This document shows, one piece after another, positions 5 to 60,546 of a stretch of 64,000 nucleotides of DNA (its first letter is position 1; every line of letters starts with the position of its first letter). The translations under genes were made by a program, and so were the position numbers. Source of the DNA: Escherichia phage vb_EcoM_bov11CS3; sequence record MT884009.2. One strand, given 5' to 3'. Under the pieces are notes generated by a model, which saw only the letters and a program-made list of their open reading frames with translations, was not told the DNA's origin and made no database searches.

Positions 5-1987
5 TTATTTGGTGTTATTCTTTGTATCAATCAGCTCACGGTATTCAATCATAGCAGGGGTGTCCCAATATTTCAAGCCTACATGCTTCAAAAGTGGGTA
101 TTTCTTTTCCAATCTTGCAATATAGGCCTTCCCGCATTTAACTCGGTTGGCGATTAAGATTTTGGCACGATGATTTAGCTCACTGTGCTTCCACGTGGTG
201 TTACCTTCCCACTTGTGGAAATGTGGCCGATAATTTCCAAAATCTTGCATGGGAATAATTTTCCCTAATTGTCTATACAGGCTGTCATAAGAAGTCTCAT
301 TTGCTGCACGGGTCAGTAAGAATTTCCAAGCATCCTCTTTCAACAGGTGCTCCACATTCTTCTCTGTAACATACTGGCAATCAGGATCAGTCCAAAGCAG
401 ACGAGATTCAGATACCAGATACAGATCTTCACCTTCAGGAATCTGAAGTGCCGCACGTACACGGTCATAATCTTGCTGGTAGATGTTACTCATCTGCCCC
501 AGCCAACAACTTCCACGTTGGATATCACCCTCATAAGGGATGCAGTGTTTAATCTTCCGGAACTCTGCCTTAGTAATACGCTCACGGCGGAAGTAACCAT
601 CCTTCTCAAGTTTTTTAACCCAATAGCCTGGCTCATAATGAGTTTTTGTTTCACCTTTCTTCGCAGGTCGGCGAGGGAGCTCTGATAACAATTTGATCGT
701 ATCTGCAAAGAACGGGTGGTGTGCTGCCTCTTTAAACTCTTTCACCAGATCAGTGTTCCGGCAATAGAAAACGTTGCGTCCGGTGATCTCGCTTAAGTAG
801 TTACACTTATTTCGGTTATATTTGCCGTCTCCGTCGTTAAATACTAAATAAACTCCCCGTAAGAATTCTACCTTTCCGTAACAAGCGTAACCTATGCGGC
901 CTTTATTTAAGCCGCCAGCGAAGATCTCACAGTCCCCCAAATTTCCTAGGCCTGTCTCTTCCCATCGTTCCCACATAAAATTCTTACCGAAGATGTGCCC
1001 GAACACTCCACTGTTCTTCATCATCTCGCGTGCTTCTGAGGATGTTTTTGCTGTCTCCAATTCCGCAACAACTTCTGCCCCACGTAAACGGATACCCTCT
1101 TTGACAAAAGCCTCCAGGCGATCCTGGAATCCACCGTCGTCATGGCCCTCTATGGTCCATTCGCGCCCAGGGTTAATATTGCAATCCCCAATAGGAATCT
1201 CTACACAGATTGCAGGGTAGTCTGTCAATGTTTCCAGGAATTTAGATCGGTAAGGTTGGTGACCCATTACCACGCGACTCTCGTCAGAGCTGGTATAACC
1301 TTTCAGGATAGTCATTTTCCAACCATCTTTCTCGTAGCGATACTGCGCCTCAACCTTGTCACCTTCCAGCATCTTACTGGTCATAGGGTCGGTAACGGTA
1401 AACGGAAACTTTGCATAGCGTAGGCATGACGCAATAGCAGTGCGATATTTCAGAACATGCTCTTTCTTAACATGGAACTGAACTTTTACCCCGTTGTGCT
1501 CTTCAGTCTTCCGCTCGCGGATCTTGGTAACGTTTGGGATACCCTGATCCAAGAACAATAGATATGTGCTTTCAACACCGTTGTGCACACTAATCACATC
1601 GAAAGTGTCCACCATGCTGAACGGGGCCTTTGAACCTACACCTTTATTACCTACCAGAGCGTTGCTGTTGCGCTTGGTTGACTCCCCGAGGTTCATGAAA
1701 GTGTTGCGGACCATCTCTTCTGACATACCCAATCCAACGTCCTGCACAAAGAAGTATGGTTCAAGGTCTGTAGGGGAGTGAATGATGATCGGTACATCAC
1801 CCCGTCCAGACTCAACATGGGAGTCCACAGCATTGAAGATTGGTTCACGGCAGCTTGCCAGCACCTTATCTTCGTAAATCCCTTTAATGATTAGCCCAAA
1901 AGTCTCTTTGTTCAGAGAAATTGAGCCCCTGGTGACCTCCATATTCCCGGTTAGTACTGCTTTAGTTTCATTACTGTTTACAATCAT
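5..1987 (-). CDS. rIIA: rIIA-like protein with N-terminal GHKL (histidine-kinase-like) ATPase domain, 660 aa
   Basis: GHKL motifs in translation: N-box EPIFNAVDSH, G1 DVGLGMS, G2 GNKGVGSKAPF. Stop codon at 5-7, so the gene is complete. Family assignment from remembered rIIA architecture, not searched. Confidence 0.5.
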   Translation of the reverse strand: MIVNSNETKAVLTGNMEVTRGSISLNKETFGLIIKGIYEDKVLASCREPIFNAVDSHVESGRGDVPIIIHSPTDLEPYFFVQDVGLGMSEEMVRNTFMNLGESTKRNSNALVGNKGVGSKAPFSMVDTFDVISVHNGVESTYLLFLDQGIPNVTKIRERKTEEHNGVKVQFHVKKEHVLKYRTAIASCLRYAKFPFTVTDPMTSKMLEGDKVEAQYRYEKDGWKMTILKGYTSSDESRVVMGHQPYRSKFLETLTDYPAICVEIPIGDCNINPGREWTIEGHDDGGFQDRLEAFVKEGIRLRGAEVVAELETAKTSSEAREMMKNSGVFGHIFGKNFMWERWEETGLGNLGDCEIFAGGLNKGRIGYACYGKVEFLRGVYLVFNDGDGKYNRNKCNYLSEITGRNVFYCRNTDLVKEFKEAAHHPFFADTIKLLSELPRRPAKKGETKTHYEPGYWVKKLEKDGYFRRERITKAEFRKIKHCIPYEGDIQRGSCWLGQMSNIYQQDYDRVRAALQIPEGEDLYLVSESRLLWTDPDCQYVTEKNVEHLLKEDAWKFLLTRAANETSYDSLYRQLGKIIPMQDFGNYRPHFHKWEGNTTWKHSELNHRAKILIANRVKCGKAYIARLEKKYPLLKHVGLKYWDTPAMIEYRELIDTKNNTK

Positions 1988-2484
1988 TTATTGCGCTCCT
2001 TGTAGTAGATATGACTCCCGAATTGAGCTGTCCTCTGCATCTTTTTTGCCCATTTCGGTCGTACTTTGGTTGTATGGTAGTGTGTTGCTCCACCTGTTAT
2101 GTCCATAGCCATGTATGCAACATGGTTGTTATTATAGACCTTTAGAAGCATCTTTGCAAGACTTTTAGCGTGATCCCATGAATCTTTTTCTGTCACCTTA
2201 AAAGTTTTGCCGTGGTTTGTCCACGAAAACTGGTTAGGTTGGTAGACAATCTTTCTTATAGTGTCTGGGTATTTGGGGTGAGATTTCCTGTTTAGTGTGG
2301 CAAACCCTGATGCCAGCATACCCATCGTGCCATCCCCTCTAGCCTCCCTGTAGATATTGCATGCCAGAATGTTTTCCTTAGTATCTGAGGGCTTGCAAGT
2401 ATGATATACTTTTTGTTTTGGTGCTGCAACAACAGGCAGCGATAAAAATGCGCTCAAAATAATAGCAAAGATCTTAATTTTCAC
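1984..2484 (-). CDS. SleB-type cell wall hydrolase with N-terminal signal peptide, 166 aa (endolysin candidate)
   Basis: N-terminus MKIKIFAIILSAFLSLPVVAAP looks like a Sec signal. Domain pattern NIYREARGDG ... YQPNQFSW ... GGATHYH fits the SleB/Hydrolase_2 family. 4-nt overlap with the downstream gene. Confidence 0.65.
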   Translation of the reverse strand: MKIKIFAIILSAFLSLPVVAAPKQKVYHTCKPSDTKENILACNIYREARGDGTMGMLASGFATLNRKSHPKYPDTIRKIVYQPNQFSWTNHGKTFKVTEKDSWDHAKSLAKMLLKVYNNNHVAYMAMDITGGATHYHTTKVRPKWAKKMQRTAQFGSHIYYKERNK

Positions 2485-2491
2485 AATAACT

Positions 2492-2521
2492 CCAAATAGA
2501 AAATCCCCGCCGAAGCGGGGG
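2492..2521 (-). terminator. Rho-independent terminator-like hairpin
   Basis: Plus-strand CCCCGCCGAAGCGGGG (2505-2520); on the minus strand the stem is followed by ATTTTCTATTT. Lies between the 126-aa gene and the hydrolase gene. Confidence 0.5.
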
Positions 2522-2533
2522 AGGTCTTAGAAA

Positions 2534-2914
2534 TTAATCGTAGTGTGCCAAAATCTCTCCATCGTTGCAAGTTCCCTCTACAAAGTTATGAAGATTCATG
2601 CACTCATCTTGATAGAAGAATTTACCGCTTTTCAGCCGTAAGCCAAACAACTCCGCATCTCCACGATGGCAAGCCTCTACAAGTTCATAGATTTCATACG
2701 GCAACTCTCCGTCGTCATGGAAGAACCCAGCCTTATCGTTGACATAGATGAAGAAATAATCACTGCTATCGCAAGCGTCCAATATTTTAAACCAGATTTC
2801 ATCTACATCTTTTTCTCGGATATCAATCACGCAAGTGGAGCTGCATTCGTACTCCTTCTCCGGCTCCTCGGTCAATACCACCCGGTAATTTCCCCGCTTA
2901 CCTACTTTAGCCAT
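2534..2914 (-). CDS. hypothetical protein, 126 aa
   Basis: ORF track; compact spacing with neighbours; no recognisable motif. Confidence 0.5.
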   Translation of the reverse strand: MAKVGKRGNYRVVLTEEPEKEYECSSTCVIDIREKDVDEIWFKILDACDSSDYFFIYVNDKAGFFHDDGELPYEIYELVEACHRGDAELFGLRLKSGKFFYQDECMNLHNFVEGTCNDGEILAHYD

Positions 2915-2923
2915 ACAACCCCC

Positions 2924-4108
2924 TTAAGCTTTAGCTAAAATGGCGCTAAACTCTTCACCAAACTCTTTTACAATCTTCATCAGGTTTGGGTACGCTTTGA
3001 TCAGTTGAGCAACGATCTTGTCACGCCCTTTACCGATAAGCAAGGCATTTCCTAAGGCATTAGGTTTCATCATCGCCATAAAGACTGAGAATACAAAATC
3101 TCGGTTCTCGTCCTTGAAGTTTTCCCAAAGGAAATCGAGGAAGTTTGCCACGCAGCTGACAAGATCTTCATCTGAGATACTTGCATTTTCCATCATATTA
3201 CGAATAGCGATACAACCTTCAGATCCAAGAATCCACAAGATGTCTGGCTGCTTAGGACCTACGTATTCTTTGCAACCCCCTGCCATAATCCGACCGATTT
3301 CCGGTAAATTGCGTTTCTTGGTGTGGTAGGTCCAGATCTCTACCGCTGCAGTGTGACCAATAGCACCTTGCAGAAGAACACGGGCCATAGCGTCAGAAAT
3401 AATACCGCTGTCAAAATCGTGCAGGATATCAGATGCAGCAACCCAAGATCGCGGTGTGGCAAAAGATGGGCAATTAATCTCAGCCATAGCCTCATAATTA
3501 TCAATAGCTGACGGAACTCTTTTCAGATACCCAATTACAGAGGAGTGCACTCCATTAAGGAATGCGTAGTCCTCAATAAACACCTCTGCATTGCTTGTAA
3601 CTTCTACAATGATAAAACGGTTAGCCAGAGGGGCTTCAAGCGCCGAAAGAACCGCACCATCTGTAGAACGGTTACCTGCAGCTACAAAAACAGAGCCCTT
3701 AGGGAATGCATAGGTGCCGCACTTGTGGTCGAGCATAATTTGCATTGCAACCTTTTGCAGGTAATTATCTGCATGAGTAAGCTCATCCAGAAAGATAATT
3801 CCGCTCCAGTCCGGATCTGCAGGCCAGAATTCTGGAATTGCAAACACTGTACGTGTAGTTCCATCCGCTTCTACAGGGATAGGTAGCCCAGATAAGTCGG
3901 CAGGATCTTTATCTGACAGTCGCACGTCAACCAGGTTGTCATCTCGCTCACCGAACATATTATCGGCGATCTGCTTCATCACCTGGCTCTTCCCCACGCC
4001 CATTGGTCCTAAAATCAGGACAGATCGGTTATGACGTTGGGCAAACTGAATGATAGCTGGCAACTCACGGACAGTGATTTGACCACTTTCAAATACGTTT
4101 CTTGACAT
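2924..4108 (-). CDS. MoxR-like AAA+ ATPase (AAA_5/CbbQ-type), 394 aa
   Basis: Walker A ILGPMGVGKS, Walker B IIFLDELTHAD, downstream AAGNRSTDG...LANRF segment typical of MoxR-type ATPases. Confidence 0.7.
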   Translation of the reverse strand: MSRNVFESGQITVRELPAIIQFAQRHNRSVLILGPMGVGKSQVMKQIADNMFGERDDNLVDVRLSDKDPADLSGLPIPVEADGTTRTVFAIPEFWPADPDWSGIIFLDELTHADNYLQKVAMQIMLDHKCGTYAFPKGSVFVAAGNRSTDGAVLSALEAPLANRFIIVEVTSNAEVFIEDYAFLNGVHSSVIGYLKRVPSAIDNYEAMAEINCPSFATPRSWVAASDILHDFDSGIISDAMARVLLQGAIGHTAAVEIWTYHTKKRNLPEIGRIMAGGCKEYVGPKQPDILWILGSEGCIAIRNMMENASISDEDLVSCVANFLDFLWENFKDENRDFVFSVFMAMMKPNALGNALLIGKGRDKIVAQLIKAYPNLMKIVKEFGEEFSAILAKA

Positions 4109-22629: not shown

Positions 22630-22944
22630 TTACCTTTTACTATGCTCTACGAGCATGTGCAAAATCTTTTGTACATCAGCTCGGATGCCGGAGACATCTG
22701 TCCTGACATCCTGCTTAAGGTCGTTAATATCGGCCTCTAGCTTGCTTAACCGGGTCTCGATAACGGAATCAAGTCTATCTTTTGTAACCATACTGTTTTT
22801 CACTAAGATGAGGTCTTTCTCCAGCTCATCTAACCTCTTGGAAATGCCTTTCCATTTGGTGTGCCACTGGTTGAAAGCCCATACACAGATCGGGACAACG
22901 GTACCCATGCAGATACCGTATAATGCCGCCAAATCCAACTCCAC
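22630..22944 (-). CDS. membrane-anchored coiled-coil protein, 104 aa
   Basis: N-terminal hydrophobic segment LAALYGICMGTVVPICVWAF followed by charged heptad-like sequence. Confidence 0.4.
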   Translation of the reverse strand: MELDLAALYGICMGTVVPICVWAFNQWHTKWKGISKRLDELEKDLILVKNSMVTKDRLDSVIETRLSKLEADINDLKQDVRTDVSGIRADVQKILHMLVEHSKR

Positions 22945-28973: not shown

Positions 28974-31900
28974 TTAGTCGTGAGACTCGTTCCAAGGTCC
29001 CTGGAAGCTTGAGTTAGAACGACTAACGATCACAGTGGGACAGGAGATTGTGACACCTGTCACGCTAGACGTTGACCACGGTGTGTAAATCTCGATAACA
29101 ATGTCTATAGTTTGTTCACCCAGACCTGTTATCCCTACCGCACACATGCCGTTGTTGTCGTTAAAATACTTCTTGCCAGCAAGGATCTGATGACCAGCTA
29201 TCCATGCATTCAATTGGGAGCTGGCAAGAGTACCATTCAGTTTAAAGAAGAATGTTACGTTCTTACCCTGACCTGAAACGTTATCTACGTATCTCCACCT
29301 CCAACGGCAAACCCTTTGCTGGGAGTTATATACTGGAGCACAATCCCCGTAAGTCCTGTGTGCAACAATTGCACCTTCGAACTGGTTAGCGCGGATAACA
29401 GAAGCTTCTACACGACCACGGAAGGTACCTCCGGTTGCATCTATGGTGCCTCTAAAGCTACCATTATTGGCATAAACATCCCCACGGAAGGTACCGCTAG
29501 TGGCGTTAACTGCCCCTGTGAAGTTACCAGAACTGGCGTTGATGTTGCCTTTCACCCACACATCCATAAATTGGGCGTGCCCGTTCTTGTTAATATACCA
29601 ACCGTATTTATGGTACCCGTTGCCATCGTAGTTGTTTGACGAAATTTCTTGTGCGATCTTGGCAGAGGAGATCGTGCCATTCTCTATAAAAGCGTCTTTC
29701 AAGAACGCTTGGTTGTTCTTGATTGCGAAAGCAAGGGTTGCTGTTCCATTGCCAGGGTTGTATACCGCAAAATTGTTTGCGCTAACCATGAAGTAGGATT
29801 GAACTTGGCCTCCAGACCCTTCCATCCCCAACTGAATACCTGCAACATATTTATTCCCTGCGGAGTCTACCTGTATTTTTGTGCCCCATTGAGCATTTAC
29901 TTTACCCTCTAAGTCGGTTACAGCCTTAGATGTTGTAGCTACTGCAGCCCTGATCTCAGACACATCCCCAACATCATCAATGATCTCCTGCTTAGCAACA
30001 GCAAGTTCTTGACGAATAGCTGACGCTGTGCCGTTGATAAGGTCCACAGTGGCTTTGTTGGTATCGGAAATTGTAGCATCCAGCGCTGTTTTTGTGGAGG
30101 TCAGTTTTCCATCCAAAGCATCAATCGCTTGCTTGTTGGTAGAAATCTCCCCACGTGCAGAAGTTATCTGCTCTGACAGTGCAGATGTTTTCTGATTCAG
30201 CAAGTCAGTTGTGGCCTTGTTGGTATTGGCAATCAAGGTGTTGAGGTCAGTTTTTGCGGTAGTTATCTTGCCGTCAAGGGTGGTATAGTTTTTAGATACC
30301 GTCGCGTTTGTCTGACTAATCTTTTGATCCAGAGTTTCAGATGTCCTGTTCAAAAGATCTACAGTGGCTCGGTTAGTGCTCAAGATGCTTGCGTCAAGTT
30401 CTGTTCTCTGAGTATTGATCTTACCATCCAGAGTTTTATCTCCGGCTAAATACCCGCTCTCAACTCCCTCTATCTGCTCTACCAGCTCACCTTTGGCGGC
30501 AACCAATTTCTCATCTAAAGCCTCTGTCTTTTTGTTCAGAAGATCAGTAGTTGCTTTATTGGTTGTCTCAATCAGGGATGCCAATCTTCCACTTTCAGTG
30601 TTCAGATCGTTGGTGAACTTGTTCTGTGCAGCAACAAGTTTCCTATCCAGCGCTGTGATATTGCCATTGACATCCTCAAACTTCTGAGTTGTCTCTGTAA
30701 CTACCGCACCTATTCTGTCTCCAAGTTGCTGGAATGCCTCATCTACCCTACCATCCATGTACCTGTTAAGTTCTGTGACCCTATTTTCAACCTCTTCAAT
30801 AGATGAATCTAAAGTGCTCATCAACTCTTTATAAGTTTCTGTCTTTTTAAATTCAGCATCTATCTGAGGCATCAAATCCTCAATAGAGGTGTAGCAGCGT
30901 GCAGCGCATTCTACAAACTGAGAACTACCAAAAGCGTTTGTGGTTCGAATATACCAATAATAAACCTTATCGTTCTGCAGACCTTCAGATGTCCAAGTTG
31001 AACCAACACCCATACGGGTGGCGTTTGAAGTAACGGTTGCATCACTGGTGTCGGGCAACCTTGTCATACCGGATGTCCAAAAGTCATACTGGGTGCTAAC
31101 ACTTGCTAAATCCCTACTATGCGGAATCAAGGTGATAGCAAAGTATCCTTGCTTAACCTCTACAGAAACCGGAGCTTCAGGTGCCTGAATGTTAAACTCA
31201 CAATACGCTTCTGGAGATACACCACCTTTATAAGATGTTGCAACCACGGTTGCTGTGTATGACCCTTTTGTCAAACCTTCTACTCTGACAAACTGCTCAA
31301 CTGTCTGTGCTGTCCAAACAATCTCTCCGTTCTTTCTTACCTGCACAATGTTTTGAGCATAAGTCCCAACGTTGTCCCAAGCCAAAACACCGTGAGTTAC
31401 TTCCCCAGCTTGGAGAACGGAGTATCTGAAGTTTTGCGGCTGAGCTACACCGGACGGGGATATCGGAATATCTACATCGCCGGAATCCGGAAGTTGCCCT
31501 GTGGCATCATTCCACTCTTTAGCATCTTGACGAAGTTTTACCTTGACACCGCCCTTTTTGGTGAACTCCCATTCAAGAACCCTCATTTCTTGGCCCACTA
31601 TACCAATACTTGGAAGATCCATTGTGACGTAACGACCAGGCTTAAATTTAAAACCTCGCATATTGCAGGTGACTTCAATAATCCTGCCAGCTCTGGCACG
31701 TCTTAAGAATATTGCAGAAACACGCTGAGCTTGATAAGGGCTGGTAACAAAGCGATAGTCTATATCGATTATCTTTCTTTCTCCATCCTTCTCTATCCAC
31801 TCTGGGACAAACACTGATGGAAAATCTGTTTCAGAATACCCTTTGGTCGGACTAGTGAATCTGCCAGTTATTGTGTTAGATCTTTTGTCAAATGAGGCTT

Positions 31901-32813
31901 CAGGATAGATCTTAACCTCACCGCAGACACAATCCTCACTTAGTGTCATTGTTGCCGGGCCATAGTATGCACCTACCAGCAGTCCATACTTACCAGCTAC
32001 ATAGCTGAGATCTGCACCACAAGCTTTCAGCATTTCTGCCATAATACTTGCTGGAGCCTCATCCATGTCGAACTCACCGTTAATGGTGTAACGGCGCTCA
32101 CTGGTTCCGTCCGCGTTTTTTACCGCCTCGTCGCATATGTTGGCAGCCTCCTTGAAGGACTCCCAGTTGATGGTTTCGTCAGGACATTTAAGGTACGTTC
32201 TTAAATAGTCTAGGATCACCAAGGCCGCGTTATTGGTATACACCTCTTTACTGATACGAGGATCATAGCATTTTTTACCAACCTTGACGAGTGTAACGTT
32301 TGGCAACCCAAAAGGGAACTTGTTAGGGTCAAACCTGAAGCTGGCACGTAGCCAACTGATCCCTCTACCTATCATGTCTGGTGACCACGATGGGCAGTGT
32401 GTACCCATGAAAGGATCCGATGTTTTTCTGTCGTTATGTAGCTCCCACGATACCAAATCCCCATACGAGGAAATAGGATTACCGTCGATGAGTATATCTT
32501 CTATACCTTCCAGAGGGTGATTGGCAAGAACAATAGCACAATGGAGGGTTCTGTCGCTATCCTGCTCCAAAAACGCAAGCAATCCAGATGTGCGTGTCTT
32601 CCCATACACTACAGAGCAAGGTGCAGCAGAAGATCTGAGAAGCTTTTGTCTATCTTGCTGACTTCTGTAAGATTTGTTGCCCTCAAAAATCTTATCCAAA
32701 GTTCTGGTGGTCACAGTGTTCAGGCTGTCAGCCAGAGCTGCCTTGGATGCGTTCCAGTCATAACTTGAAGATCTTGCAGAAGCAACGATGTTATCAATCA
32801 TTGCAATTGGCAT
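28974..32813 (-). CDS. large tail fibre/host-specificity-like protein, 1279 aa, with internal tandem repeats
   Basis: Central repeats of the type TNKATTDLLNKKTEALDEKL / TNRATVDLLNRTSETLDQKI / TNKATTDLLNQKTSALSEQI / TNKATVDLINGTASAIRQEL. Confidence 0.55.
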   Translation of the reverse strand: MPIAMIDNIVASARSSSYDWNASKAALADSLNTVTTRTLDKIFEGNKSYRSQQDRQKLLRSSAAPCSVVYGKTRTSGLLAFLEQDSDRTLHCAIVLANHPLEGIEDILIDGNPISSYGDLVSWELHNDRKTSDPFMGTHCPSWSPDMIGRGISWLRASFRFDPNKFPFGLPNVTLVKVGKKCYDPRISKEVYTNNAALVILDYLRTYLKCPDETINWESFKEAANICDEAVKNADGTSERRYTINGEFDMDEAPASIMAEMLKACGADLSYVAGKYGLLVGAYYGPATMTLSEDCVCGEVKIYPEASFDKRSNTITGRFTSPTKGYSETDFPSVFVPEWIEKDGERKIIDIDYRFVTSPYQAQRVSAIFLRRARAGRIIEVTCNMRGFKFKPGRYVTMDLPSIGIVGQEMRVLEWEFTKKGGVKVKLRQDAKEWNDATGQLPDSGDVDIPISPSGVAQPQNFRYSVLQAGEVTHGVLAWDNVGTYAQNIVQVRKNGEIVWTAQTVEQFVRVEGLTKGSYTATVVATSYKGGVSPEAYCEFNIQAPEAPVSVEVKQGYFAITLIPHSRDLASVSTQYDFWTSGMTRLPDTSDATVTSNATRMGVGSTWTSEGLQNDKVYYWYIRTTNAFGSSQFVECAARCYTSIEDLMPQIDAEFKKTETYKELMSTLDSSIEEVENRVTELNRYMDGRVDEAFQQLGDRIGAVVTETTQKFEDVNGNITALDRKLVAAQNKFTNDLNTESGRLASLIETTNKATTDLLNKKTEALDEKLVAAKGELVEQIEGVESGYLAGDKTLDGKINTQRTELDASILSTNRATVDLLNRTSETLDQKISQTNATVSKNYTTLDGKITTAKTDLNTLIANTNKATTDLLNQKTSALSEQITSARGEISTNKQAIDALDGKLTSTKTALDATISDTNKATVDLINGTASAIRQELAVAKQEIIDDVGDVSEIRAAVATTSKAVTDLEGKVNAQWGTKIQVDSAGNKYVAGIQLGMEGSGGQVQSYFMVSANNFAVYNPGNGTATLAFAIKNNQAFLKDAFIENGTISSAKIAQEISSNNYDGNGYHKYGWYINKNGHAQFMDVWVKGNINASSGNFTGAVNATSGTFRGDVYANNGSFRGTIDATGGTFRGRVEASVIRANQFEGAIVAHRTYGDCAPVYNSQQRVCRWRWRYVDNVSGQGKNVTFFFKLNGTLASSQLNAWIAGHQILAGKKYFNDNNGMCAVGITGLGEQTIDIVIEIYTPWSTSSVTGVTISCPTVIVSRSNSSFQGPWNESHD
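30040..30620 (-). repeat. about four imperfect in-frame tandem repeats (150-185 bp period) inside the 1279-aa gene
   Basis: Recurring plus-strand units at about 30049, 30212, 30365 and 30550 (e.g. CAGTGGCTTTGTTGGTATCGG / GTTGTGGCCTTGTTGGTATTGG). Confidence 0.5.
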
Positions 32814-33250
32814 TAATACCTCCAGACATCAACAACGATAGAATCTTTCATGTCGAACATAAAGACCCCTTTATCACCTTTCGCCCAAATCTGGTTGTTC
32901 CAGAACACACCAGCGGTGAGCCCGTTCAGACCTTCGAAAATGACAATATCTCCACGCTGAACCTGTTTAGGAGTATCCAGCCGAGTCATAAAGAGATCAA
33001 AAATAGTAGGCAGGTGTGTGGTTTTGAAACGAAGCATGCACCATCTTTTGCTTTCCAACTCTGTTTTATACGTTCCTTCGAAGTTAGAAAGAAAATCTGT
33101 TCCGTATTGGGCATCAACACACTTAGCTGCAAAGGTGCAACAATCGTGGAATCCCCATTCAAAAGGTATGGTGGCCTCTTCGTCAAACACTTTCCACAAT
33201 CTTTCTTGCCAATCCACTAAACGAGGGTGTGTGCTCATTAAACCTCCCAA
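32813..33250 (-). CDS. hypothetical tail-module protein, 145 aa
   Basis: ORF track; contains FHDCC and later His residues (weak peptidase-like hint only). Confidence 0.45.
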   Translation of the reverse strand: MGGLMSTHPRLVDWQERLWKVFDEEATIPFEWGFHDCCTFAAKCVDAQYGTDFLSNFEGTYKTELESKRWCMLRFKTTHLPTIFDLFMTRLDTPKQVQRGDIVIFEGLNGLTAGVFWNNQIWAKGDKGVFMFDMKDSIVVDVWRY

Positions 33251-33804
33251 ATGATCGGGCGGCTCGCCACCTGATCCACATATTTAAAAAATCTGTCATT
33301 ATCGTTTCTTGAGCTGTGGCTTTCCTCCGTGTACCGATAAGGAAAACCTCTTAACCAACTGTTGAAGATGGAAGAGATGGATATGGACAAAGCACTATTC
33401 TCCCCTGTCTGAATAGCCATATCTGTTATAAGGCCGTCAAACAAGCCATTAGTTGTGACAGGCAGACCATTCTCCATAGCGGTAATGTACAACGTGGCAC
33501 GACAACCGGAATACTCCGTCTTCAGAAGATCACCCACATACTTAGGATCAAACCCGTTCAATGTCGCTACCACAGATCCGAAGTTGGTGGCATCTTTCTC
33601 AGACACAGCAGTTAACGTTGCTGATCCACCTATCCCTATAAAATGTTGCCCCTCAATTACTACCACACCAGTGCCTGAGCACACCCTGACAGTTCCTGTC
33701 GGTAGCTCTAGCTTTGCAGCAATTAAAATCTCAACACCATCAAGCTCCAGCTTTTCAAGAAATAAATTATCTAATGGCGCTCTGATCATCTTAGAAATCC
33801 TCAA
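33238..33804 (-). CDS. tail/baseplate protein, 188 aa
   Basis: ORF track; overlapping neighbours. Confidence 0.45.
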   Translation of the reverse strand: MRISKMIRAPLDNLFLEKLELDGVEILIAAKLELPTGTVRVCSGTGVVVIEGQHFIGIGGSATLTAVSEKDATNFGSVVATLNGFDPKYVGDLLKTEYSGCRATLYITAMENGLPVTTNGLFDGLITDMAIQTGENSALSISISSIFNSWLRGFPYRYTEESHSSRNDNDRFFKYVDQVASRPIIWEV

Positions 33805-34381
33805 AGAAGTTGATAACTATATTATCACCTTTTTGCATAGCATCGACTTTTTGCTTAATTTTATGAATATCTCTGATATGAAACCTACCCTTCGGGGATT
33901 GAGTTATTATCTTCATAGTGTCCCCTGCGGCAATAGGTTTTCTAAGTCTTGGAGATATGCTTATAACAGCAGCCCCAACACCATCACTGCGCACTGGAGC
34001 TGTTACCACTTTCAACTCATCATTGACAGATATTTTATCGCCAGCTCTAGCTATGTCTCTGTTTGGCTCCCACCCAACCGTCTTCAAAAAATCGTCGTTA
34101 CCAGTAGGCCCCAGGGCGATTGGCTCATTAGCTGTTACTGAGTGACCGTAAGTTTTAATAAGAAAGATGTTTCCATCTTTATACACCTGATCAACAAAGC
34201 TCTTAAGCTCTAACAACTGTGACTCGCTGATATTAGAGACCGTCAAAGTGCCTTTCCAATTAGGTGTGGCATAGGTTACTTTTTGCGTTTTACCTGTAAA
34301 CGGACTTTTAAACGTAACAATATCTGCCAGCAGCTCCAATCTAATATCTGGAAGGTATCTAGGCCTTTCCCATAAAAACAT
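33791..34381 (-). CDS. tail/baseplate protein, 196 aa
   Basis: GGAGG before ATG 34381. Confidence 0.45.
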   Translation of the reverse strand: MFLWERPRYLPDIRLELLADIVTFKSPFTGKTQKVTYATPNWKGTLTVSNISESQLLELKSFVDQVYKDGNIFLIKTYGHSVTANEPIALGPTGNDDFLKTVGWEPNRDIARAGDKISVNDELKVVTAPVRSDGVGAAVISISPRLRKPIAAGDTMKIITQSPKGRFHIRDIHKIKQKVDAMQKGDNIVINFFEDF

Positions 34382-34412
34382 TGTGCCTCCGGGTTAAACA
34401 ATCATGATAGTT

Positions 34413-34441
34413 ATTTTACCAGATTTTGAGTTAATACGCAA
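34413..34441 (-). promoter_or_regulatory. possible sigma70-like promoter
   Basis: Minus-strand TTGCGT, 17-nt spacer, TAAAAT; weak -35. Confidence 0.3.
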
Positions 34442-34442
34442 T

Positions 34443-34474
34443 ACAAACAAAAAGCCCCCGCCGAAGCGAGGGCA
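34443..34474 (-). terminator. Rho-independent terminator
   Basis: GCCCTCGC-TTCG-GCGGGGGC stem followed by TTTTTGTTTGTAT on the minus strand, directly after the 1270-aa gene. Confidence 0.55.
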
Positions 34475-34480
34475 AAACAG

Positions 34481-37400
34481 TTACTTCAATTTCTCTTGCA
34501 ACCCAGTAACAACCTCTGTCAATTTTTTAACCTGCTCCTCAAGGGCGGTTATTTTATCATCCTGTTCCCTGCAAACCTGGACAAGCAAGCCTGTTACAGC
34601 TGCGTAATCCACGCTGTAGAATCTTTCCTCTGTTATCAAAGGAGTTCCATCTTGATCAGGGTTTGGGATTTCCTTTCTTTGCACGAAAGAGCTAACCGCT
34701 TCCGGCAGAGCTTCAAGCACTTCTTGTGCTATAACACCTGCATAAGGCATACCGTTCTCTTTAAGAGTGTAAGTATAACCCTTCATCTTCCGGATAGCTT
34801 CTAACGCATCAGGAATAACAGCTATGTTATCTTTCAGGTCTCTGTCAGAACTCTGATTGACAGATGTGCAATTCACAGCGCCGTTTACAGAAAGATATCT
34901 TGATTTATCCGGCAAGGTACCGCAATGCCATACCCAATTTGATTGAGACTCGTCAAGAACCTTAAACTCTAACACGTTTGGACGATCTCCTGTGCTGCCG
35001 TTACCCCAATAATACATATGGGCGGCATTAGCAGGCATGTTGCCACCGTTATTAGTAACATGGCTTCCAGAAATATACACCTTTAACTCTGGGGTTGGTA
35101 TTTCCCCTTCTGGGGTTGTTCCTCCATACCTGAAGCTAACACCATTACCACCTGTTTGGGTCCACGGGCCCCAAGTGAAGACCTGTTTCACCATATTCCC
35201 ATAACGTGTGAATCTATCGCCATGGTAGGTAATATACTCTTGAACACACCCATTACCGTCATTGGCGTTATTTTGCAACACAATAAGTGTTCCGGCCTCA
35301 TTTACGGGATAATGACGATCATATGTTGCATCATTATTTGCAGGCTGATGGTAAATACCTTCCCACAATCCGTGATAGGTGTTAAGGTCTGAAGAACCAA
35401 GACCTTGACCCCTGTGTTGCATGGCCTTATTCCAGGGATGGTGATTACCACCTTCTATAGACCTGGTGTATAAGTTACTTTGTCTGCCAGCAATCTGGAA
35501 AGCGTAGTTTCCCGAGAATCCTACAGATAACCCGCCTACAACCATGGTATCCTGTGGGCCGTTAACATTACCAGCTATTATTTTTGACGGGTTGTTAGGC
35601 CCAAACTGGTTGTTCCAGTCTGCACCCGTGTGGCATACAAAACCGCCCGGAGCTGAGAAAGTGCCATCTTTGTTGAAGTTGTAGAATCTATGAGCTGTGC
35701 CTACAACATCACGAACAATAACTTGAGCAGCTTCTGGAGTAGACCTGAACTCTGCTTGACCTTTAAGGCCAGCACCATTACCGCATTTAGAGGTAAACGT
35801 GCCGTTAGTTAGATCCTCTGTTCCATCTGATGCACACTGGAATCCTGCGTTAGAGAATAGCGCCTTTCTAGGACCACTGTAGCACAAATAGTCAAAACCG
35901 TCAGCCCATAGCTCTACTTTAGGCATGTTCATTTTGCTCATTATCGCATAGCGTTCAGCAGTGCCTATATAGTGCCACTGTGTGCCGCCGCCAGTGTAGA
36001 ACCCAGAGGTACCTTTGAAGTCAACAATAGGTCTGGTGTTGGTATTGTTATCTCCGAGAACAGCCAGATTTAAATCTGCTGACTGGAGAGGTGCAACGAA
36101 CTTAACACCGTCCTGATTGTCTGTTACAGAGCCAACCTGGTAATCTTGCTCCCTGGTAAACACCTCGACAACATTTCTACTTGCGTATATGCTGACAGGG
36201 AAAGCACGCGCCTCTGCATAGAAAGCAACATATTCTTGTTTACCCCTTGTTGGAGCAACCATCCCAAGAAGTGCTTTTTCATTCTGGTAGAAATTTACTA
36301 CCCCGTAGAAAGAGTCTCCTCTGTCTGTCCAACCACCAGTTCTATAGTGACACTGTAAGGTAGCACAGTTCATAGGGTCATTTCCAGATGACGATCTGGT
36401 AACTATGGTAATATCAGTACCAGTTGCTGGAGCATAGTACGGATCTGTTCTAACGATGATCGGGTAGTATTTCCCATCTTCCATCCCTGCGGTTCTTGGC
36501 AGTGTTAAGAAGTCTTTCACACCTGCTGCTATAGGAACTTTGAACAGATTCTGAGCATCTGCTAGAGTTGTAGCCCCGGTGCCACCTGCGGCTTGAGGTA
36601 GAGGTTCCCACTTGGCCTTCCGGTTGTTATAAACACCCCATTCCAGAGTGCCGTTACCGGATTCGTCCATCCCGCCATCCCAGATAACCATCTTGGCGGC
36701 TTTCTTAGATCCCCAGAAGCCTCTTTCTGCTCCTGAACTACGTATCCACTCTCCAAGTCCCCAGTTTGTCAGCTGACCAGTAAGATCCCCAACCTGCATG
36801 TATTTAGGGCAGTCTAATACACCGTCTTCGCGGAAACCCAAATATCTATGAGTTTCAGATCCTTTTGCACCTTTGTGGAGGTGGATTGTCAACCAAGCCT
36901 TATTGTCGTTTCTTACCTCAGAGTAGATCCTATATCCATGCTCAAGGACACCGTCAGCGCTGTATTTGTCCCCGTTAACAATACCGGATGCTGACTTAAC
37001 ATCAGCAGAACTTTGAGACAGGTAAAGGTGCCCGAAGGTAGGAGAATTTCTAGACCCGAGACCGATGTGCGATCTAAAGGTATCATCGTTACGAGGTCTA
37101 ACCATCGGCTGCCATGCAGTCCACTGATTTGTGTTGGCCTGATAGGTTCTCAAATACCAAACATCTACGTTAGAGAATGGGTAGTATTCCTGACGACAAC
37201 CTGTACCGCCGTTAGCATTGTTCTGCCAAACAATCAAGTGACCAGCACCAGAACCTGCAGGGTAACCATTTGCCTCAGTTGCATAAGCAGTCATCGGCTG
37301 GTAGTATACACCATCCTGATTACCAGTCAAGTTATTGATATTGAAATTTGGCTCAAGGGCTGCACGTTGCTTATAGAAAGCACCGATATTGATACGGACT

Positions 37401-58316: not shown

Positions 58317-59864
58317 TTAGATAAAACGCTTGAACATAGAAGGTGATGAGATTGATGGAATCACACAAGGAAGTGCTACCTCCTCTTTCTCCAGGAAATT
58401 AATCGCAGAAGCTACACAGTCTGCCCAGTCGTCTTTTCTGTTAAATGTTGATCTTTCCCCGTTGAATTTTTCAAGTTCAGTCAGAAATGCTTCCAGAGTA
58501 TCAGGATGGAAACTGGATTTTACAATCCTCACCATTCCTTGTTGTGCAAGATTGGCAAAAGGTGAGAACCTTGTCAGTTTAGATTTGTTGGAAGGCATTG
58601 GGTCTTCTTCAACCCTGAACCCTTCGGCGAGCAAGGATCTGGATGAGGTTAAGAACTCACTCTTACCTGCCTGACCTGGGTCCACAGAGAAGACGATTAT
58701 GCAATCATCACCATCGAACTGCGCCTGTTTCCTGATGATCACATCTCGTTCACCAGCCTTTTTACAGAACTTGCCTTCCAGACCTGTGGAATACCTCCCG
58801 TCATCCACGTTCTCAGGACAATAATCACCGGACAGGTAATAAAAGCCGTCGCTATCTTTACTTACCTTAATACTGGCAGTAAAGTCAGGAAATTTATTAC
58901 CGGAAGTTCTCTCGGTTCCTGCCTTATCCCATGCCCTGCAAGATACTGACCCAAGAGGTACTCTATCGGCATCACGAAGGAAAGATCTTTGAAAATAGTT
59001 TGCACCCTCAGGCTTTGCAAACCAGTTACCATGGAGAAGCTGAGCTTTTTCCAGCTCTGGTAGACCTTCGAGGAAAGCAAGGTATTCTGGGTTGTCTCTC
59101 AAACAGACAGGATTATCGAATATTGTTGCGCCTATGAACGAGAATGACAACGGTCTTGGCTTGATCTCTACGCCAAGTCCGTTAACCGTGGTGTATTTCT
59201 CTATCAACTCTTCTTTAGAATCTCCCCAGATAAATTCCCCGTCGCGTCGGATAAAATATCTTTTCTTACCGCATTTCTCCGGATCTGGATACCCTTCATC
59301 GTCCAACCACCATCTAACCAGTTTGGCAAGCATGTGTTCTGAATCGGGGTTACAGCTGATAACCATTCTTGATGGATACTTTGACTGAGATCGCAGACGA
59401 GACATCAGGTAGTCTATCTGCTCCCATTCGAACTGCGTGCCCTCATCGAAGCAAACCATGGTGTACTCAAGCCCCTGATGGTTAAGCTTATCTTGTACAT
59501 ACTCCATATGGCAGTATTTTACAACAGCTCCCTTTTTGCTTCTATCCCACTTGCCAGTGTTCGGATCAAACCGTGGAAAAATGAACTTATGATCCTTCTC
59601 TCTGAACTTTGGCTTAATGTTTTCAGGCAGATCACTATAAATAGCTACCGCTTTAGGCCATAGTCCACCCTCACCTTCCAACTGCGGGGTTGTTCTTCGG
59701 AACATAACCACAGAGCTGTGGGGGTCATCAATAATTTTAAGTGGCATCAATTGCAAGAGGAACGACTTGCCAGACCCTGCGGCACCGCCGATTACCAAAA
59801 TATCTGCATCGTTTTCGAGGATCATCTTCTGCTTTTCAGAACACGGTCCGTAAATCTTAGACAT
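58317..59864 (-). CDS. terL: terminase large subunit, 515 aa
   Basis: Walker A ADILVIGGAAGSGKS, Walker B-like MVCFDEGTQ, C-terminal nuclease-like region. Confidence 0.75.
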   Translation of the reverse strand: MSKIYGPCSEKQKMILENDADILVIGGAAGSGKSFLLQLMPLKIIDDPHSSVVMFRRTTPQLEGEGGLWPKAVAIYSDLPENIKPKFREKDHKFIFPRFDPNTGKWDRSKKGAVVKYCHMEYVQDKLNHQGLEYTMVCFDEGTQFEWEQIDYLMSRLRSQSKYPSRMVISCNPDSEHMLAKLVRWWLDDEGYPDPEKCGKKRYFIRRDGEFIWGDSKEELIEKYTTVNGLGVEIKPRPLSFSFIGATIFDNPVCLRDNPEYLAFLEGLPELEKAQLLHGNWFAKPEGANYFQRSFLRDADRVPLGSVSCRAWDKAGTERTSGNKFPDFTASIKVSKDSDGFYYLSGDYCPENVDDGRYSTGLEGKFCKKAGERDVIIRKQAQFDGDDCIIVFSVDPGQAGKSEFLTSSRSLLAEGFRVEEDPMPSNKSKLTRFSPFANLAQQGMVRIVKSSFHPDTLEAFLTELEKFNGERSTFNRKDDWADCVASAINFLEKEEVALPCVIPSISSPSMFKRFI

Positions 59865-60151
59865 TAACCGCTCTCCTTTGGAAACAGTGTTCTAATATAG
59901 TCTTGCAAAATGATCAATTTAGCTCTATCATTGCTACAAGACAGATTATTATCCCTCATAATGCCAGAATTCACTGCATCTGGCGCACCTTTCTTCAAAG
60001 GCATAGCTTTAGCAGGTGGTTTCATGGCACCTTCCGGGGGTTTAACAATCAACCTTCCTACATCCGGAGGGTCAATCTTGTATTCTCTCTCAACGTTGGT
60101 TGCACACCCACATAATAACAAGCACACAATAAACAGTGTAGCAACTCTCAT
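59864..60151 (-). CDS. o-spanin (Rz1-like outer-membrane lipoprotein), 95 aa
   Basis: Signal peptide with lipobox LLLCGC, Pro-rich mature part; AGGAGG before ATG 60151; ATGA overlap with the upstream i-spanin. Confidence 0.6.
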   Translation of the reverse strand: MRVATLFIVCLLLCGCATNVEREYKIDPPDVGRLIVKPPEGAMKPPAKAMPLKKGAPDAVNSGIMRDNNLSCSNDRAKLIILQDYIRTLFPKESG

Positions 60152-60546
60152 CGATCCTCCTGATTGATACTCTCATTATAAATATCTATAAGCTGATCAG
60201 GGAGTGTTGACTTCTTGCCTTCAGGTGACTGGAGGTAGATAATCTGCTTTTCTTTACCTGCCTTCTCAGCCATATTTAATTTATCCTGCAGATCAGAAAG
60301 GGATTTTTCAAGGTTTTTAACCTCCTCTGCGTGGCCCATTTTAATTTTGTCGGCCTGCTTTTGTTGCTGATCAAGGATCCGTTCCCACTTTAACTCTGTT
60401 GCTGACACACCCTCTTGGTAGGCTTCATTAAGCTTAGAGTTAAACCAATACACGGCCCCAAGATAAGCTGTACCTATAGCCGCTGCAAAAACTAAACCTT
60501 TTATGATCCCTCTATACCTACTCAGCCATGTTAAACCTGAAATCAT
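60148..60546 (-). CDS. i-spanin (Rz-like), 132 aa
   Basis: N-terminal transmembrane anchor GIIKGLVFAAAIGTAYLGAVYWF followed by charged coiled-coil region; GGAG before ATG. Confidence 0.6.
   Translation of the reverse strand: MISGLTWLSRYRGIIKGLVFAAAIGTAYLGAVYWFNSKLNEAYQEGVSATELKWERILDQQQKQADKIKMGHAEEVKNLEKSLSDLQDKLNMAEKAGKEKQIIYLQSPEGKKSTLPDQLIDIYNESINQEDR

Follow-up and report, generated by a model that had tools for sequence, protein, structure and literature searches.

A SleB/CwlJ-type cell wall hydrolase with a predicted Sec signal, encoded apart from the lysozyme and spanin genes of an rV5-like coliphage

Introduction

The closest described relatives of the gene considered here are those encoding gp2 of coliphage rV5 and its orthologues in the Vequintavirinae (CB7_83, CR3_087 and SSE121 gp087), which are likewise located 5′ of rIIA or of a helicase gene. 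In rV5 Table S3, gene 2 is listed as a “cell wall hydrolase” of 166 aa. A signal peptide was reported for the CB7 homologue (CB7_83), whose expression in E. coli was also described as toxic (from data that the study does not show), and an involvement in host lysis has been stated for the CR3 homologue (PMC7344957). The papers on rV5, LL12 and CB7 already describe dispersed lysis genes, a holin that was not identified and SleB-like homologues bearing a signal peptide.

Small Hydrolase_2 proteins with an N-terminal export signal are also encoded in the early or replication regions of more distant phages, i.e. T5.083, the DT57C and AKFV33 ORF81 equivalents, PAK_P3 gp151, PaP1 g029 and the Phapecoctavirus “cell wall hydrolase”. 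The T5-like, PaP1 and Phapecoctavirus genomes are reported to encode, in addition, a separate endolysin that is either characterised or canonical. A different arrangement is found in Pseudomonas phage PAJU2 (D3-like), which also infects a Gram-negative host: its gp74 shares the Hydrolase_2 domain but has no signal peptide, and the gene, 3′ of a Q-like antiterminator, has a holin candidate with several TMDs on one side and spanin-like genes on the other.

Lys44 of Oenococcus phage fOg44 is a Sec-exported, holin-independent endolysin, and Lyz of P1 and R of phage 21 are SAR endolysins; all three are sole, essential endolysins encoded in or near lysis cassettes. The hydrolase described below resembles them in its predicted N-terminal signal for export by Sec, for which no holin pore would be needed, and its activity may possibly be restrained until depolarisation. 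It differs from them in coexisting with a canonical endolysin and in having a signal that looks cleavable and not SAR-like.

The DNA analyzed was a stretch of 64,000 nucleotides (referred to as the window) from Escherichia phage vb_EcoM_bov11CS3 (record MT884009.2). The phage is an rV5-like Vequintavirus, and the complete genome examined was that of bov22_2 (record MT884010.2).

Results

The hydrolase gene and its product

The gene and the codon of its putative catalytic residue are located as follows:

1984..2484, minus strand: SleB/CwlJ-type (Hydrolase_2) cell wall hydrolase gene; 166 aa, GTG start, orthologue of rV5 gene 2
2344..2346, minus strand: codon of Glu47, putative catalytic general acid in a Y-x-E-A-R-G motif, aligned with the Glu of “YGESRGE” in 4f55/4fet

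The ORF was confirmed, and the GTG read from the sequence at 2484–2482 is the sole plausible start codon, since the next in-frame Met (M54) is encoded 3′ of the catalytic Glu codon. The gene corresponds to “gene 2”, as annotated previously in rV5-like coliphages. It is 98.4% identical at the nucleotide level to its counterpart in phage V5, the rV5-type orthologues have the same size of 166 aa, and nothing substantive distinguishes it from the rV5 gp2 group.

Residues 51–161 of the protein match positions 2–100 of the 100-position Pfam profile Hydrolase_2 (PF07486) above the gathering threshold (E=2.1e-19; 70.4 bits, cutoff 27), and the protein also matches phrog_938, labelled “endolysin” (E=1.7e-27). 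Its sequence matches in the PDB are the SleB catalytic domains 4f55 and 4fet. These were also the only significant Foldseek matches of its AF2 model (pLDDT 94.7), with target-normalised TM scores of 0.74–0.79. The proposal of a sequence-only reading of the window, that this ORF encodes a SleB-type hydrolase carrying a Sec-type signal (see below), was supported, and its observation of a 4-nt overlap with a rIIA-like gene was confirmed.

E47 is invariant in 83 of the 83 aligned homologues; Y45 and R66 are also invariant. The catalytic Glu of SleB is essential (PMC12331253), and the catalytic role assigned to E47 rests on that study together with the alignment. The score against the SleB equivalog profile TIGR02869 (spore_SleB; NCBIfam) was 48.3 bits, far below the cutoff of 236.5, and the match was confined to profile positions 83–201. 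The phage protein shares with the Bacillus enzymes the catalytic fold and the Glu within a Y-x-E-x-R-G-E motif, and its layout resembles that of the single-domain CwlJ. Unlike SleB, to which it is ~24% identical, it has no N-terminal peptidoglycan-binding domain: Pfam detected no PG_binding domain, and residues 1–30 comprise the signal peptide and a short linker. Further differences from SleB and CwlJ are a Gram-negative Sec signal, a clade-specific pair of Cys residues and a host that has no cortex. Bacillus SleB requires muramic-δ-lactam, which is absent from E. coli murein, so activity of the phage enzyme on E. coli peptidoglycan is an assumption.

Cys30 and Cys42 occur together in all 22 clade sequences (22/22), never singly at position 30, as a periplasmic disulfide would predict. 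The protein is at least 95% identical in 113 phage records, which places the gene far beyond chance, and in all 113 the gene itself is at least 95% identical at the nucleotide level. Across these records it is more tightly conserved than the neighbouring rIIA, which indicates functional constraint. We conclude that the gene is real and that its product is a putative secreted, cell-wall-cutting enzyme. In the GenBank record of bov22_2 it is labelled merely “hypothetical protein”, while “endolysin” is the label of the family in PHROGs, RefSeq and several GenBank records.

The predicted N-terminal signal

2425..2484, minus strand: predicted cleavable Sec (SPase I) signal peptide, codons 1–20, MKIKIFAIILSAFLSLPVVA, with the predicted cut before A21

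By heuristic features, the N-terminus (MKIKIFAIILSAFLSLPVVA followed by AP) consists of a basic n-region and an 18-residue hydrophobic core, with Pro at −5 and V-x-A at −3/−1. These are all the hallmarks of a cleavable Sec signal, and cleavage is predicted. The core contains 56% L/I/F/V/M and 33% G/A/S/T. The SAR domains of P1 and phage 21 contain 55–65% G/A/S/T over 20–23 residues, and in composition the hydrolase signal is like those of PhoA and Bla and unlike these SAR domains. By these features the protein appears to lack the uncleaved, Gly/Ala/Ser-rich TMD able to exit the membrane that defines SAR endolysins; its signal-like N-terminus also sets it apart from canonical holin-dependent endolysins, which have no export signal.

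A word-indexed homologue search returned only 10 matches, and an exhaustive representative search was used instead. An N-terminal hydrophobic signal was present in 142 of the 160 family members, the property being kept while the sequences have diverged. In every close homologue the helix breaker is followed by a small-x-small motif (SFA↓A, VLA↓K, ALA↓K and SQA↓S).

Genetic organization of the locus

5..1987, minus strand: rIIA gene (phrog_612 RIIA, E=8e-124; Pfam HATPase_c_3)
2490..2493, minus strand: Shine-Dalgarno sequence GGAG, 5 nt 5′ of the hydrolase GTG, read from the sequence
2494..2520, minus strand: intrinsic-terminator-like hairpin CCCCGC-UUCG-GCGGGG with AUUUUCUAUUU on its 3′ side, separating gene 3 from the hydrolase gene (“t003” of rV5)
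2534..2914, minus strand: 126-aa gene, orthologue of rV5 gene 3 and the last before the terminator (phrog_12370, unknown function; no TMD)

The rIIA ATG overlaps the hydrolase stop codon by 4 nt (ATGA), which suggests translational coupling, and in the genome record rIIB comes after rIIA. With rIIA on one side and the soluble 126-aa protein gene on the other, the hydrolase gene has no adjacent gene for a TMD protein and does not form part of a lysis cassette. No small membrane-protein ORF comparable to CR8_089 or to that of SSE121 was found beside or inside the junction of the SleB-like gene and rIIA in bov22_2, in contrast to the Certrevirus and Seunavirus relatives, in which such an ORF is directly downstream: CR8 encodes a 62-aa protein with two TMDs that overlaps the stop codon of the SleB-like gene, and SSE121 has an adjacent, unannotated ORF with one TMD.

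The hairpin was detected by a terminator scan (fold energy −20.9 kcal/mol, z=−2.3) and is listed as terminator t003 in rV5 Table S4. In SSE121 and CR8 a hairpin, a T-tract and GGAG likewise precede the gene, with a different sequence; the position of the hairpin ahead of the SleB-like gene is thus conserved across three genera. A promoter search directly 5′ of the hydrolase gene gave one weak match overlapping the start codon, which is not meaningful, and promoter-like sites around the gene were no commoner than in shuffled sequences. In rV5, the leftward replication/rII unit has mapped promoters of the σ70 type, among them P010, and the hydrolase gene is a member of this σ70-driven transcription unit. 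Read-through of the terminator is proposed only because no promoter was predicted for the gene. Its placement behind the terminator, together with the GTG start, argues for a low dose of the product. GTG or TTG starts were found in four of the eight homologues examined, and the muut homologue is preceded by a σ70-like promoter with an extended −10 element.

rV5 Table S3 names rV5 gene 3 as a homologue of T5.083, and the 126-aa product was therefore considered as a possible partner of T5-like SleB homologues. This was rejected: the upstream genes in DT57C are unrelated, T5.083 is there the SleB homologue itself, and the 126-aa protein showed no similarity to the product of the gene upstream of the T5-like SleB homologue.

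Lysozyme, spanins and holin candidates

In the complete genome a λ-R-type lysozyme is encoded at 102586–103056 (MT884010.2), ~6.6 kb beyond the right end of the window. Its residues 4–154 match PDB 1am7 (E=5.8e-57), it belongs to phrog_90 “endolysin” (E=5e-56), and a hydropathy scan detected no TMD, i.e. no export signal. From these matches it is the predicted canonical cytoplasmic endolysin, the counterpart of the rV5 gp89-type lysin. The authors of the rV5 and LL12 papers also assigned the lysin to the λ-R-type lysozyme gene. It has the same length (156 aa) as LysECP26 of phage ECP26, an enzyme that shares 98% identity with the rV5 lysin and causes lysis of Gram-negative cells in vitro (PMC9728275). 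The lysozyme is present across the genus in a full or divergent form. Vequintaviruses with a poor lysozyme match were considered as possibly endolysin-less; this was discarded, since ECML-10 has at the same locus a divergent, unannotated lysozyme of the same type (165 aa).

The remaining candidate lysis genes in the window are the following:

22630..22944, minus strand: 104-aa protein of the tail-fibre module with one N-terminal TMD (residues 5–23) and a coiled coil (phrog_5345, unknown function)
59864..60151, minus strand: o-spanin, 95 aa, with lipoprotein signal ...LLLCGC (lipobox LLCGC) (phrog_1267 Rz-like spanin, E=2e-22)
60148..60546, minus strand: i-spanin, 132 aa, with N-terminal TMD (residues 14–32) and a coiled coil (phrog_4297 Rz-like spanin, E=6e-49)

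The i-spanin stop overlaps the o-spanin start by 4 nt, and the pair adjoins the TerL gene. With its TMD, lipobox-like LLCGC and family matches, the 59864–60546 region has the features of a two-component spanin, and spanins have already been published for rV5 and LL12. The sequence-only reading had placed this pair far from the hydrolase gene, and the distance is indeed ~57.4 kb. It had further proposed that the lysis genes may be dispersed, which agrees with the separate loci of lysozyme, spanins and hydrolase, and that the hydrolase is the only recognisable peptidoglycan hydrolase of the window. The latter holds as far as tested, no peptidoglycan-hydrolase domain having been found in ten large structural (tail/baseplate) proteins of the window. 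Access to the periplasm without a holin is likewise in keeping with the predicted Sec-type signal. The designation of the hydrolase as “the” endolysin was not supported, given the lysozyme gene beyond the window. The holin-like candidate that this reading had noted in the fibre module, presumably 22630..22944, was not supported as a holin, as it matched no holin family in Pfam, PHROGs or NCBIfam. Of a holin-endolysin cassette elsewhere in the genome, which would have spoken against the initial idea, the canonical endolysin was found, but no recognisable cassette surrounds the lysozyme gene in the complete genome.

Small TMD proteins collected genome-wide by a hydropathy scan matched no holin family in Pfam, PHROGs or NCBIfam. 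The authors of the rV5 paper proposed as holin the two-TMD protein gp129, encoded ~22 kb from the lysin gene, and those of the LL12 paper could not identify a holin in LL12. The best candidate is the rV5 gp129-like protein (75 aa, two TMDs), encoded outside the window.

Related genes in other large phages

Replication or nucleic-acid modules harbour the SleB-like genes of SSE121, CR8, RP14, Cr30 and a Vibrio phage. That of the T5-like DT57C lies in a tRNA-rich early region, and those of muut and ESCO37 are flanked by hypothetical genes only. According to the records and literature checked, the SleB-like gene is accompanied by a different, canonical endolysin in CB7 and PVP-SE1-type phages, Phapecoctavirus, T5-like phages and PaP1. 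Compared with the group of T5.083, PAK_P3 gp151 and PaP1 g029, the hydrolase of the window shows 30–40% identity and has different neighbours, no rII genes being found in those phages. PAK_P3 gp151 is distant (~33% identity), with an N-terminus more like a signal anchor. Its transcription was equal at 3.5 and 13 min, and the authors of the PAK_P3 study proposed it as an AMG accounting for the build-up of cell-wall precursors. The hydrolase of the window also differs from PAJU2 gp74, having a signal peptide and a location in the replication unit.

Discussion

The hydrolase is probably a small secreted enzyme of the lytic-transglycosylase type that is accessory to lysis and not the main endolysin, because the ordinary lysis enzyme of the phage is encoded just outside the window. 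From the early or middle phase of infection on, read-through of the terminator would yield small amounts of the precursor, to be exported by SecYEG and cut by signal peptidase I after VVA20. The mature protein (146 aa, basic, pI ~10) would fold in the periplasm, stabilised by a Cys30–Cys42 disulfide, and could nick the glycan strands of the sacculus with no need of a holin. Its natural dose would not lyse the cell, the wall being instead remodelled or pre-weakened, and the damage may grow once a holin collapses the membrane potential. The timing and the bulk of wall destruction would be left to the cytoplasmic λ-R-type lysozyme released by the holin, followed by the spanins. Three points count against this model: (i) an active muramidase exported early might be expected to cause premature lysis, (ii) Bacillus SleB needs muramic-δ-lactam, as noted above, and (iii) the family bears “endolysin” labels in PHROGs and GenBank, with the CR3 homologue implicated in host lysis.

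A role apart from release, namely peptidoglycan turnover or remodelling (an auxiliary metabolic function), a block of division with cell enlargement, or an envelope change directed against superinfection, appears rather unlikely. It is suggested by the recurrence of signal-bearing homologues in large virulent phages that are unrelated to one another, where replication or early modules encode them and several groups have a documented separate endolysin, by the AMG proposal for PAK_P3 gp151 (transcribed from 3.5 min onward), and by the physical coupling of the gene to rIIA/rIIB, which encode membrane-associated early proteins. However, these arguments are purely correlative, a contribution to lysis through wall weakening would account for them too, and the PAK_P3 homologue is remote and more anchor-like at its N-terminus.

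It is improbable that lysis is driven by the hydrolase as the principal endolysin of the phage, reaching the periplasm through Sec without the aid of a holin and being followed by the spanins. The PHROG and RefSeq labels point in this direction, Hydrolase_2 enzymes are genuine endolysins in some phages (e.g. PAJU2 gp74 within a Q-holin-endolysin-spanin cassette), the gene is conserved across the Vequintavirinae, with a toxic homologue in CB7 and the CR3 homologue linked to host lysis (PMC7344957), and rV5-like phages have no positively identified holin. But this genome also encodes a second, canonical endolysin, found in full or divergent form across the genus and of a type shown to be active in LysECP26 (PMC9728275), which argues against the hydrolase being solely responsible for lysis. 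Moreover, the cassette-borne PAJU2 gp74 has no signal peptide, while the signal-bearing forms are found outside lysis cassettes, mostly in replication or early modules, and the upstream terminator and GTG start point to a low dose.

Even less credible is a SAR or signal-anchored endolysin kept inactive in the inner membrane until depolarisation by a pinholin. The N-terminal hydrophobic segment, the lack of an adjacent canonical holin, the small membrane proteins encoded beside the CR8 and SSE121 homologues and the Cys pair near the catalytic helix would fit such an enzyme, but the core is short (18 residues), rich in Ile/Leu/Phe and poor in Gly/Ala/Ser/Thr, and it is followed by a canonical Pro(−5)/V-x-A cleavage motif conserved in kind among the homologues. 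In addition, bov22_2 has no adjoining gene for a small membrane protein, and the catalytic residue is a Glu and not a caged Cys. A virion-associated lysin breaching the wall at DNA injection is hardly conceivable: it would account for an entry lysin otherwise missing from the ten large tail/baseplate proteins, but a cleavable Sec signal would direct the protein to the periplasm, away from virion assembly in the cytoplasm, rV5 Table S3, in which structural proteins detected by MS are marked, leaves gene 2 unmarked, and the gene belongs to a replication and not a structural unit.

Beyond the accessory role proposed here for the hydrolase of the window, it is conceivable, though we offer this only tentatively, that SleB/CwlJ-type hydrolases with a signal peptide constitute a hitherto unrecognised class of periplasmic effectors, conserved and expressed early or midway in infection, which several mutually unrelated lineages of large virulent phages infecting Gram-negative hosts have in common, their task being a dose-limited remodelling of the sacculus and not release. 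The lineages concerned are the Vequintavirinae, Stephanstirmvirinae, T5-like Demerecviridae, Nankokuvirus and Pakpunavirus, and Cr30. Most of their genes reside in replication or early modules, and for several lineages a canonical endolysin has been documented in addition. In such a class, an upstream terminator and weak start codons would keep expression low, and the possible roles include release of precursors, loosening of the wall so that the cell can enlarge, preparation for sudden lysis and envelope changes directed against competitors.

With its small size, its basic character and its probable toxicity to E. coli when acting in the periplasm, the mature hydrolase is a candidate enzybiotic scaffold. 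For the biology of these viruses, the finding means that a tightly conserved, putatively secreted SleB-like enzyme is encoded in the replication modules of many large lytic phages of Gram-negative bacteria, and that those checked also have an ordinary endolysin.

The SleB-like hydrolase and its signal-like N-terminus

The gene under study and the features adjoining it are located as follows:

1984–2484, minus strand: SleB-like hydrolase gene, 166-aa ORF with a GTG start
5–1987, minus strand: rIIA (phrog_612, E = 8e-124), followed by rIIB
2494–2520, minus strand: terminator-like hairpin CCCCGC-UUCG-GCGGGG with a U-rich tail, the same as rV5 t003

The GTG of the SleB-like gene is preceded at a distance of 5 nt by GGAG, while its stop codon shares the ATGA with the ATG of ORF 5–1987, which is the 4-nt overlap with an rIIA-like start described in the sequence-only reading. 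By score, catalytic residue and fold, the encoded protein belongs to the Hydrolase_2 family. It matches the Pfam domain (E = 2.1e-19; 70 bits, cutoff 27), phrog_938 (“endolysin”) and the Bacillus SleB catalytic domains 4f55 and 4fet. Residues Y45, E47 and R66 are invariant in an 83-sequence alignment of the family, and E47 is aligned with the catalytic glutamate on which the activity of SleB depends (PMC12331253). A confident AlphaFold model (pLDDT 94.7) has SleB catalytic domains as its only significant PDB neighbours. Pfam, PHROG and PDB matches, fold and the invariant E47 thus agree with the domain initially assigned to this ORF. SleB proper was ruled out by the TIGR02869 score (48 bits versus a cutoff of 236.5) and by the absence of a peptidoglycan-binding domain from the protein; the name “SleB-type” is acceptable for the catalytic domain only.

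The N-terminus (MKIKIFAIILSAFLSLPVVA, followed after the predicted cleavage point by AP) comprises a basic n-region, an 18-residue core rich in Ile, Leu and Phe, Pro at −5 and V-x-A at −3/−1. It resembles classical E. coli signals and, judged from the sequence, the putative Sec-type signal proposed earlier has all the classical features. The predicted mature protein has 146 aa and a pI of ~9.95. SAR domains, in contrast, are longer and Gly/Ala-rich, and identity as a SAR endolysin was rejected on the composition and length of the hydrophobic segment. The N-termini of close homologues are unrelated in sequence, but alike in properties, with small-x-small motifs; an N-terminal hydrophobic signal is present in 142 of the 160 family members (lipoprotein-like in 14 of the 142).

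Cys30 and Cys42 occur together in all 22 sequences of the query's clade and are replaced by Cys39 in the other main clade, which is consistent with disulfide-bonded periplasmic proteins. In the alignment of SleB-like homologues (A1; numbering of the window protein) the two patterns are mutually exclusive (C30+C42 in 22 sequences, query included; C39 in 46), suggesting that a periplasmic disulfide close to the catalytic helix can be formed in alternative ways. The consensus suggests that the partner of C39 may be the Cys of a “TIC.VVYQ” motif. A few CxxC variants were also observed.

A canonical lysozyme, spanins and holin candidates

Two further loci are relevant to lysis:

59864–60151 and 60148–60546, minus strand: spanin pair, adjoining TerL
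102586–103056 of the complete bov22_2 genome (MT884010.2; “record”): “lysozyme R”, 156 aa, ~6.6 kb past the window end

On a screen of ten large structural proteins of the window, which gave no muralytic domain, the SleB-like protein remains, as had been stated, the only recognisable peptidoglycan hydrolase there, and the spanin pair is indeed far from its gene. However, the complete genome also carries the lysozyme R gene, whose product matches lambda lysozyme 1am7 (E = 6e-57) and phrog_90, and in which a hydropathy scan detected no hydrophobic segment. The dispersal of the lysis genes stands, but given this lambda-R-type lysozyme the SleB-like protein fails as the sole endolysin candidate. 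The observation made in the sequence-only reading is confirmed and its interpretation partly supported. As a canonical endolysin the SleB-like protein was rejected, because it carries a signal and no holin is adjacent.

The rV5 paper terms gp89 “an obvious lysin” and enters gene 2 in Table S3 as “cell wall hydrolase, PF07486”. Purified LysECP26 (156 aa, 98% identity to the rV5 lysin) was tried on 29 Gram-negative strains and lysed every one (PMC9728275). The LL12 announcement names gp90 as endolysin and gp65/66 as spanins, with no holin identifiable there. According to the CB7 paper, every Vequintavirinae genus has SleB-like homologues, the homologue has a signal peptide and is toxic on expression in E. 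coli, and the spanins adjoin the terminase outside any cassette. In view of these papers, dispersed lysis genes and a SleB-like protein with an export signal were already known; the gene itself is annotated in sister genomes, and the finding as written is therefore of modest interest.

A 47-aa ORF (L003, the record beyond the window, 3120–3263; record 103120–103263) lies 64 nt 3′ of the lysozyme gene. Its product, hydrophobic and possibly lipoprotein-like at the N-terminus (MKDFLLAILFMAACLACGVVFAGE...), matches phrog_4641 (no function assigned) and could be a lysis accessory protein. A 75-aa protein (L003 24937–25164; record 124937–125164, outside the window), which has two TMDs and ends in a charged C-terminus, is the counterpart of rV5 gp129, a published putative holin; it matched no holin family, only phrog_10061 (no function assigned).

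Transcription context

In rV5, a leftward unit starting at a near-consensus sigma-70 promoter (P010) comprises genes 10 to 1, then rIIB, helicases, primase and polymerase. Its sole terminator, t003, occupies the very gap that separates gene 3 from the hydrolase gene. The window hairpin lies 20 nt 5′ of the GTG, and no credible promoter was found between them. A GC-rich hairpin, T-tract and GGAG also directly precede the orthologues of SSE121 (Seunavirus; L004 ~3975–3995) and CR8 (Certrevirus; L005 ~3915–3940). This arrangement is thus shared by three Vequintavirinae genera with entirely different stem sequences: structure and position are conserved, sequence is not. In phage muut (L006), a sigma-70-like extended −10 promoter (TTGCAA-17-TGTTACAAT) takes the hairpin's place. 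GTG or TTG starts were found in four of the eight homologues examined. The P010/t003 unit, the hairpin, the lack of a credible promoter and the weak starts suggest (early or middle) transcription by host polymerase and deliberately low expression.

Conservation and comparison with bov22_2

The first 6 kb of the window are 100% identical to record positions 32001–38000 of bov22_2 (Vequintavirus, rV5-like) and share 96–99.7% identity with over 100 rV5-like phages. The whole window differs from MT884010.2 by one SNP (26747; the window has G, the record A) and one homopolymer (~32115–32121, within 28974–32813, minus strand; T6 versus T7 in GenBank), so that later window coordinates are offset by 1. 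T6 joins two CDSs of the record (238-aa “tail fiber protein” and 1030-aa J-like tail-tip protein) into a single ORF of 1279 aa. Behind this lies either a frameshift site or a homopolymer discrepancy that arose in sequencing or between versions. In the match tables for the SleB-like gene, neighbouring genes and lysozyme locus, 16 or 17 GenBank “Campylobacter phage” records (host C. jejuni, 75–146 kb) show 95–99% identity to rV5-like or other coliphages, and their host or label attribution looks doubtful.

Nucleotide identity of the SleB-like gene is at least 95% in all 113 records having it (at least 99% in 45), versus 90–95% for rIIA (5–1983) in 88 of 117 records; the former is the better conserved of these adjoining genes. 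The lysozyme locus is mosaic among Vequintaviruses. ECML-10 (L013 2501–2998) encodes a divergent, unannotated 165-aa lambda-type lysozyme, whose gene has in common with that of bov22_2 just the first 42 nt and the C-terminal end, and an extra 253-aa HNH-like ORF lies 3′ of it. That the canonical endolysin varies while the SleB-like gene is tightly conserved is consistent with a function that is accessory yet under selection.

SleB-like genes in other phages

SSE121 retains the order SleB-like gene, rIIA, rIIB, helicase; in CR8 the SleB-like gene is followed by genes for a 62-aa two-TMD protein and a 61-aa protein, then the helicase. The former, CR8_089 (L005 4477–4665), overlaps the hydrolase stop by 4 nt, and an unannotated ~42-aa one-TMD ORF (MILSITQWMFWEQVSGAYLLGLLAGIYIVRKARKRNPINNCK) lies immediately 3′ of the SSE121 gene (L004 4532–4721). 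Neither small ORF is present beside the SleB-like gene of bov22_2, where the overlap is with rIIA.

Signal-bearing homologues are located among hypothetical genes (muut, ESCO37), in the tRNA-rich early region of T5-like DT57C (a T5.083 homologue), between ligase and helicase (Nankokuvirus RP14) and between exonucleases (a Vibrio phage); Caulobacter phage Cr30 also has one. According to the literature, T5-like, PaP1, PVP-SE1-like, CB7 and Phapecoctavirus phages each have another endolysin besides the SleB-like gene. PAK_P3 gp151 is transcribed as strongly at 3.5 min as at 13 min (log2FC 0.62, not significant), and the authors of that study proposed that it is an auxiliary gene behind the accumulation of wall precursors. 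In contrast to the window gene, PAJU2 gp74 is a Hydrolase_2 enzyme without a signal peptide in a classical Q-holin-endolysin-spanin cassette. The domain thus has two uses: in cassette endolysins that lack a signal, and in enzymes that bear one and whose genes lie apart from lysis cassettes, for the most part in replication or early modules. The window gene belongs to the latter kind.

Proposed role

The SleB-like precursor would be made at low level from early or mid-infection and exported by Sec, with signal cleavage and disulfide formation. The mature protein may then act on E. coli murein as a periplasmic lytic transglycosylase, via Glu47, remodelling or pre-weakening the sacculus. Final lysis would be timed by a holin letting out the lambda-R-type lysozyme, followed by the action of the spanins. 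Such an enzyme, predicted to be secreted, is retained beside a normal endolysin by many large virulent phages.
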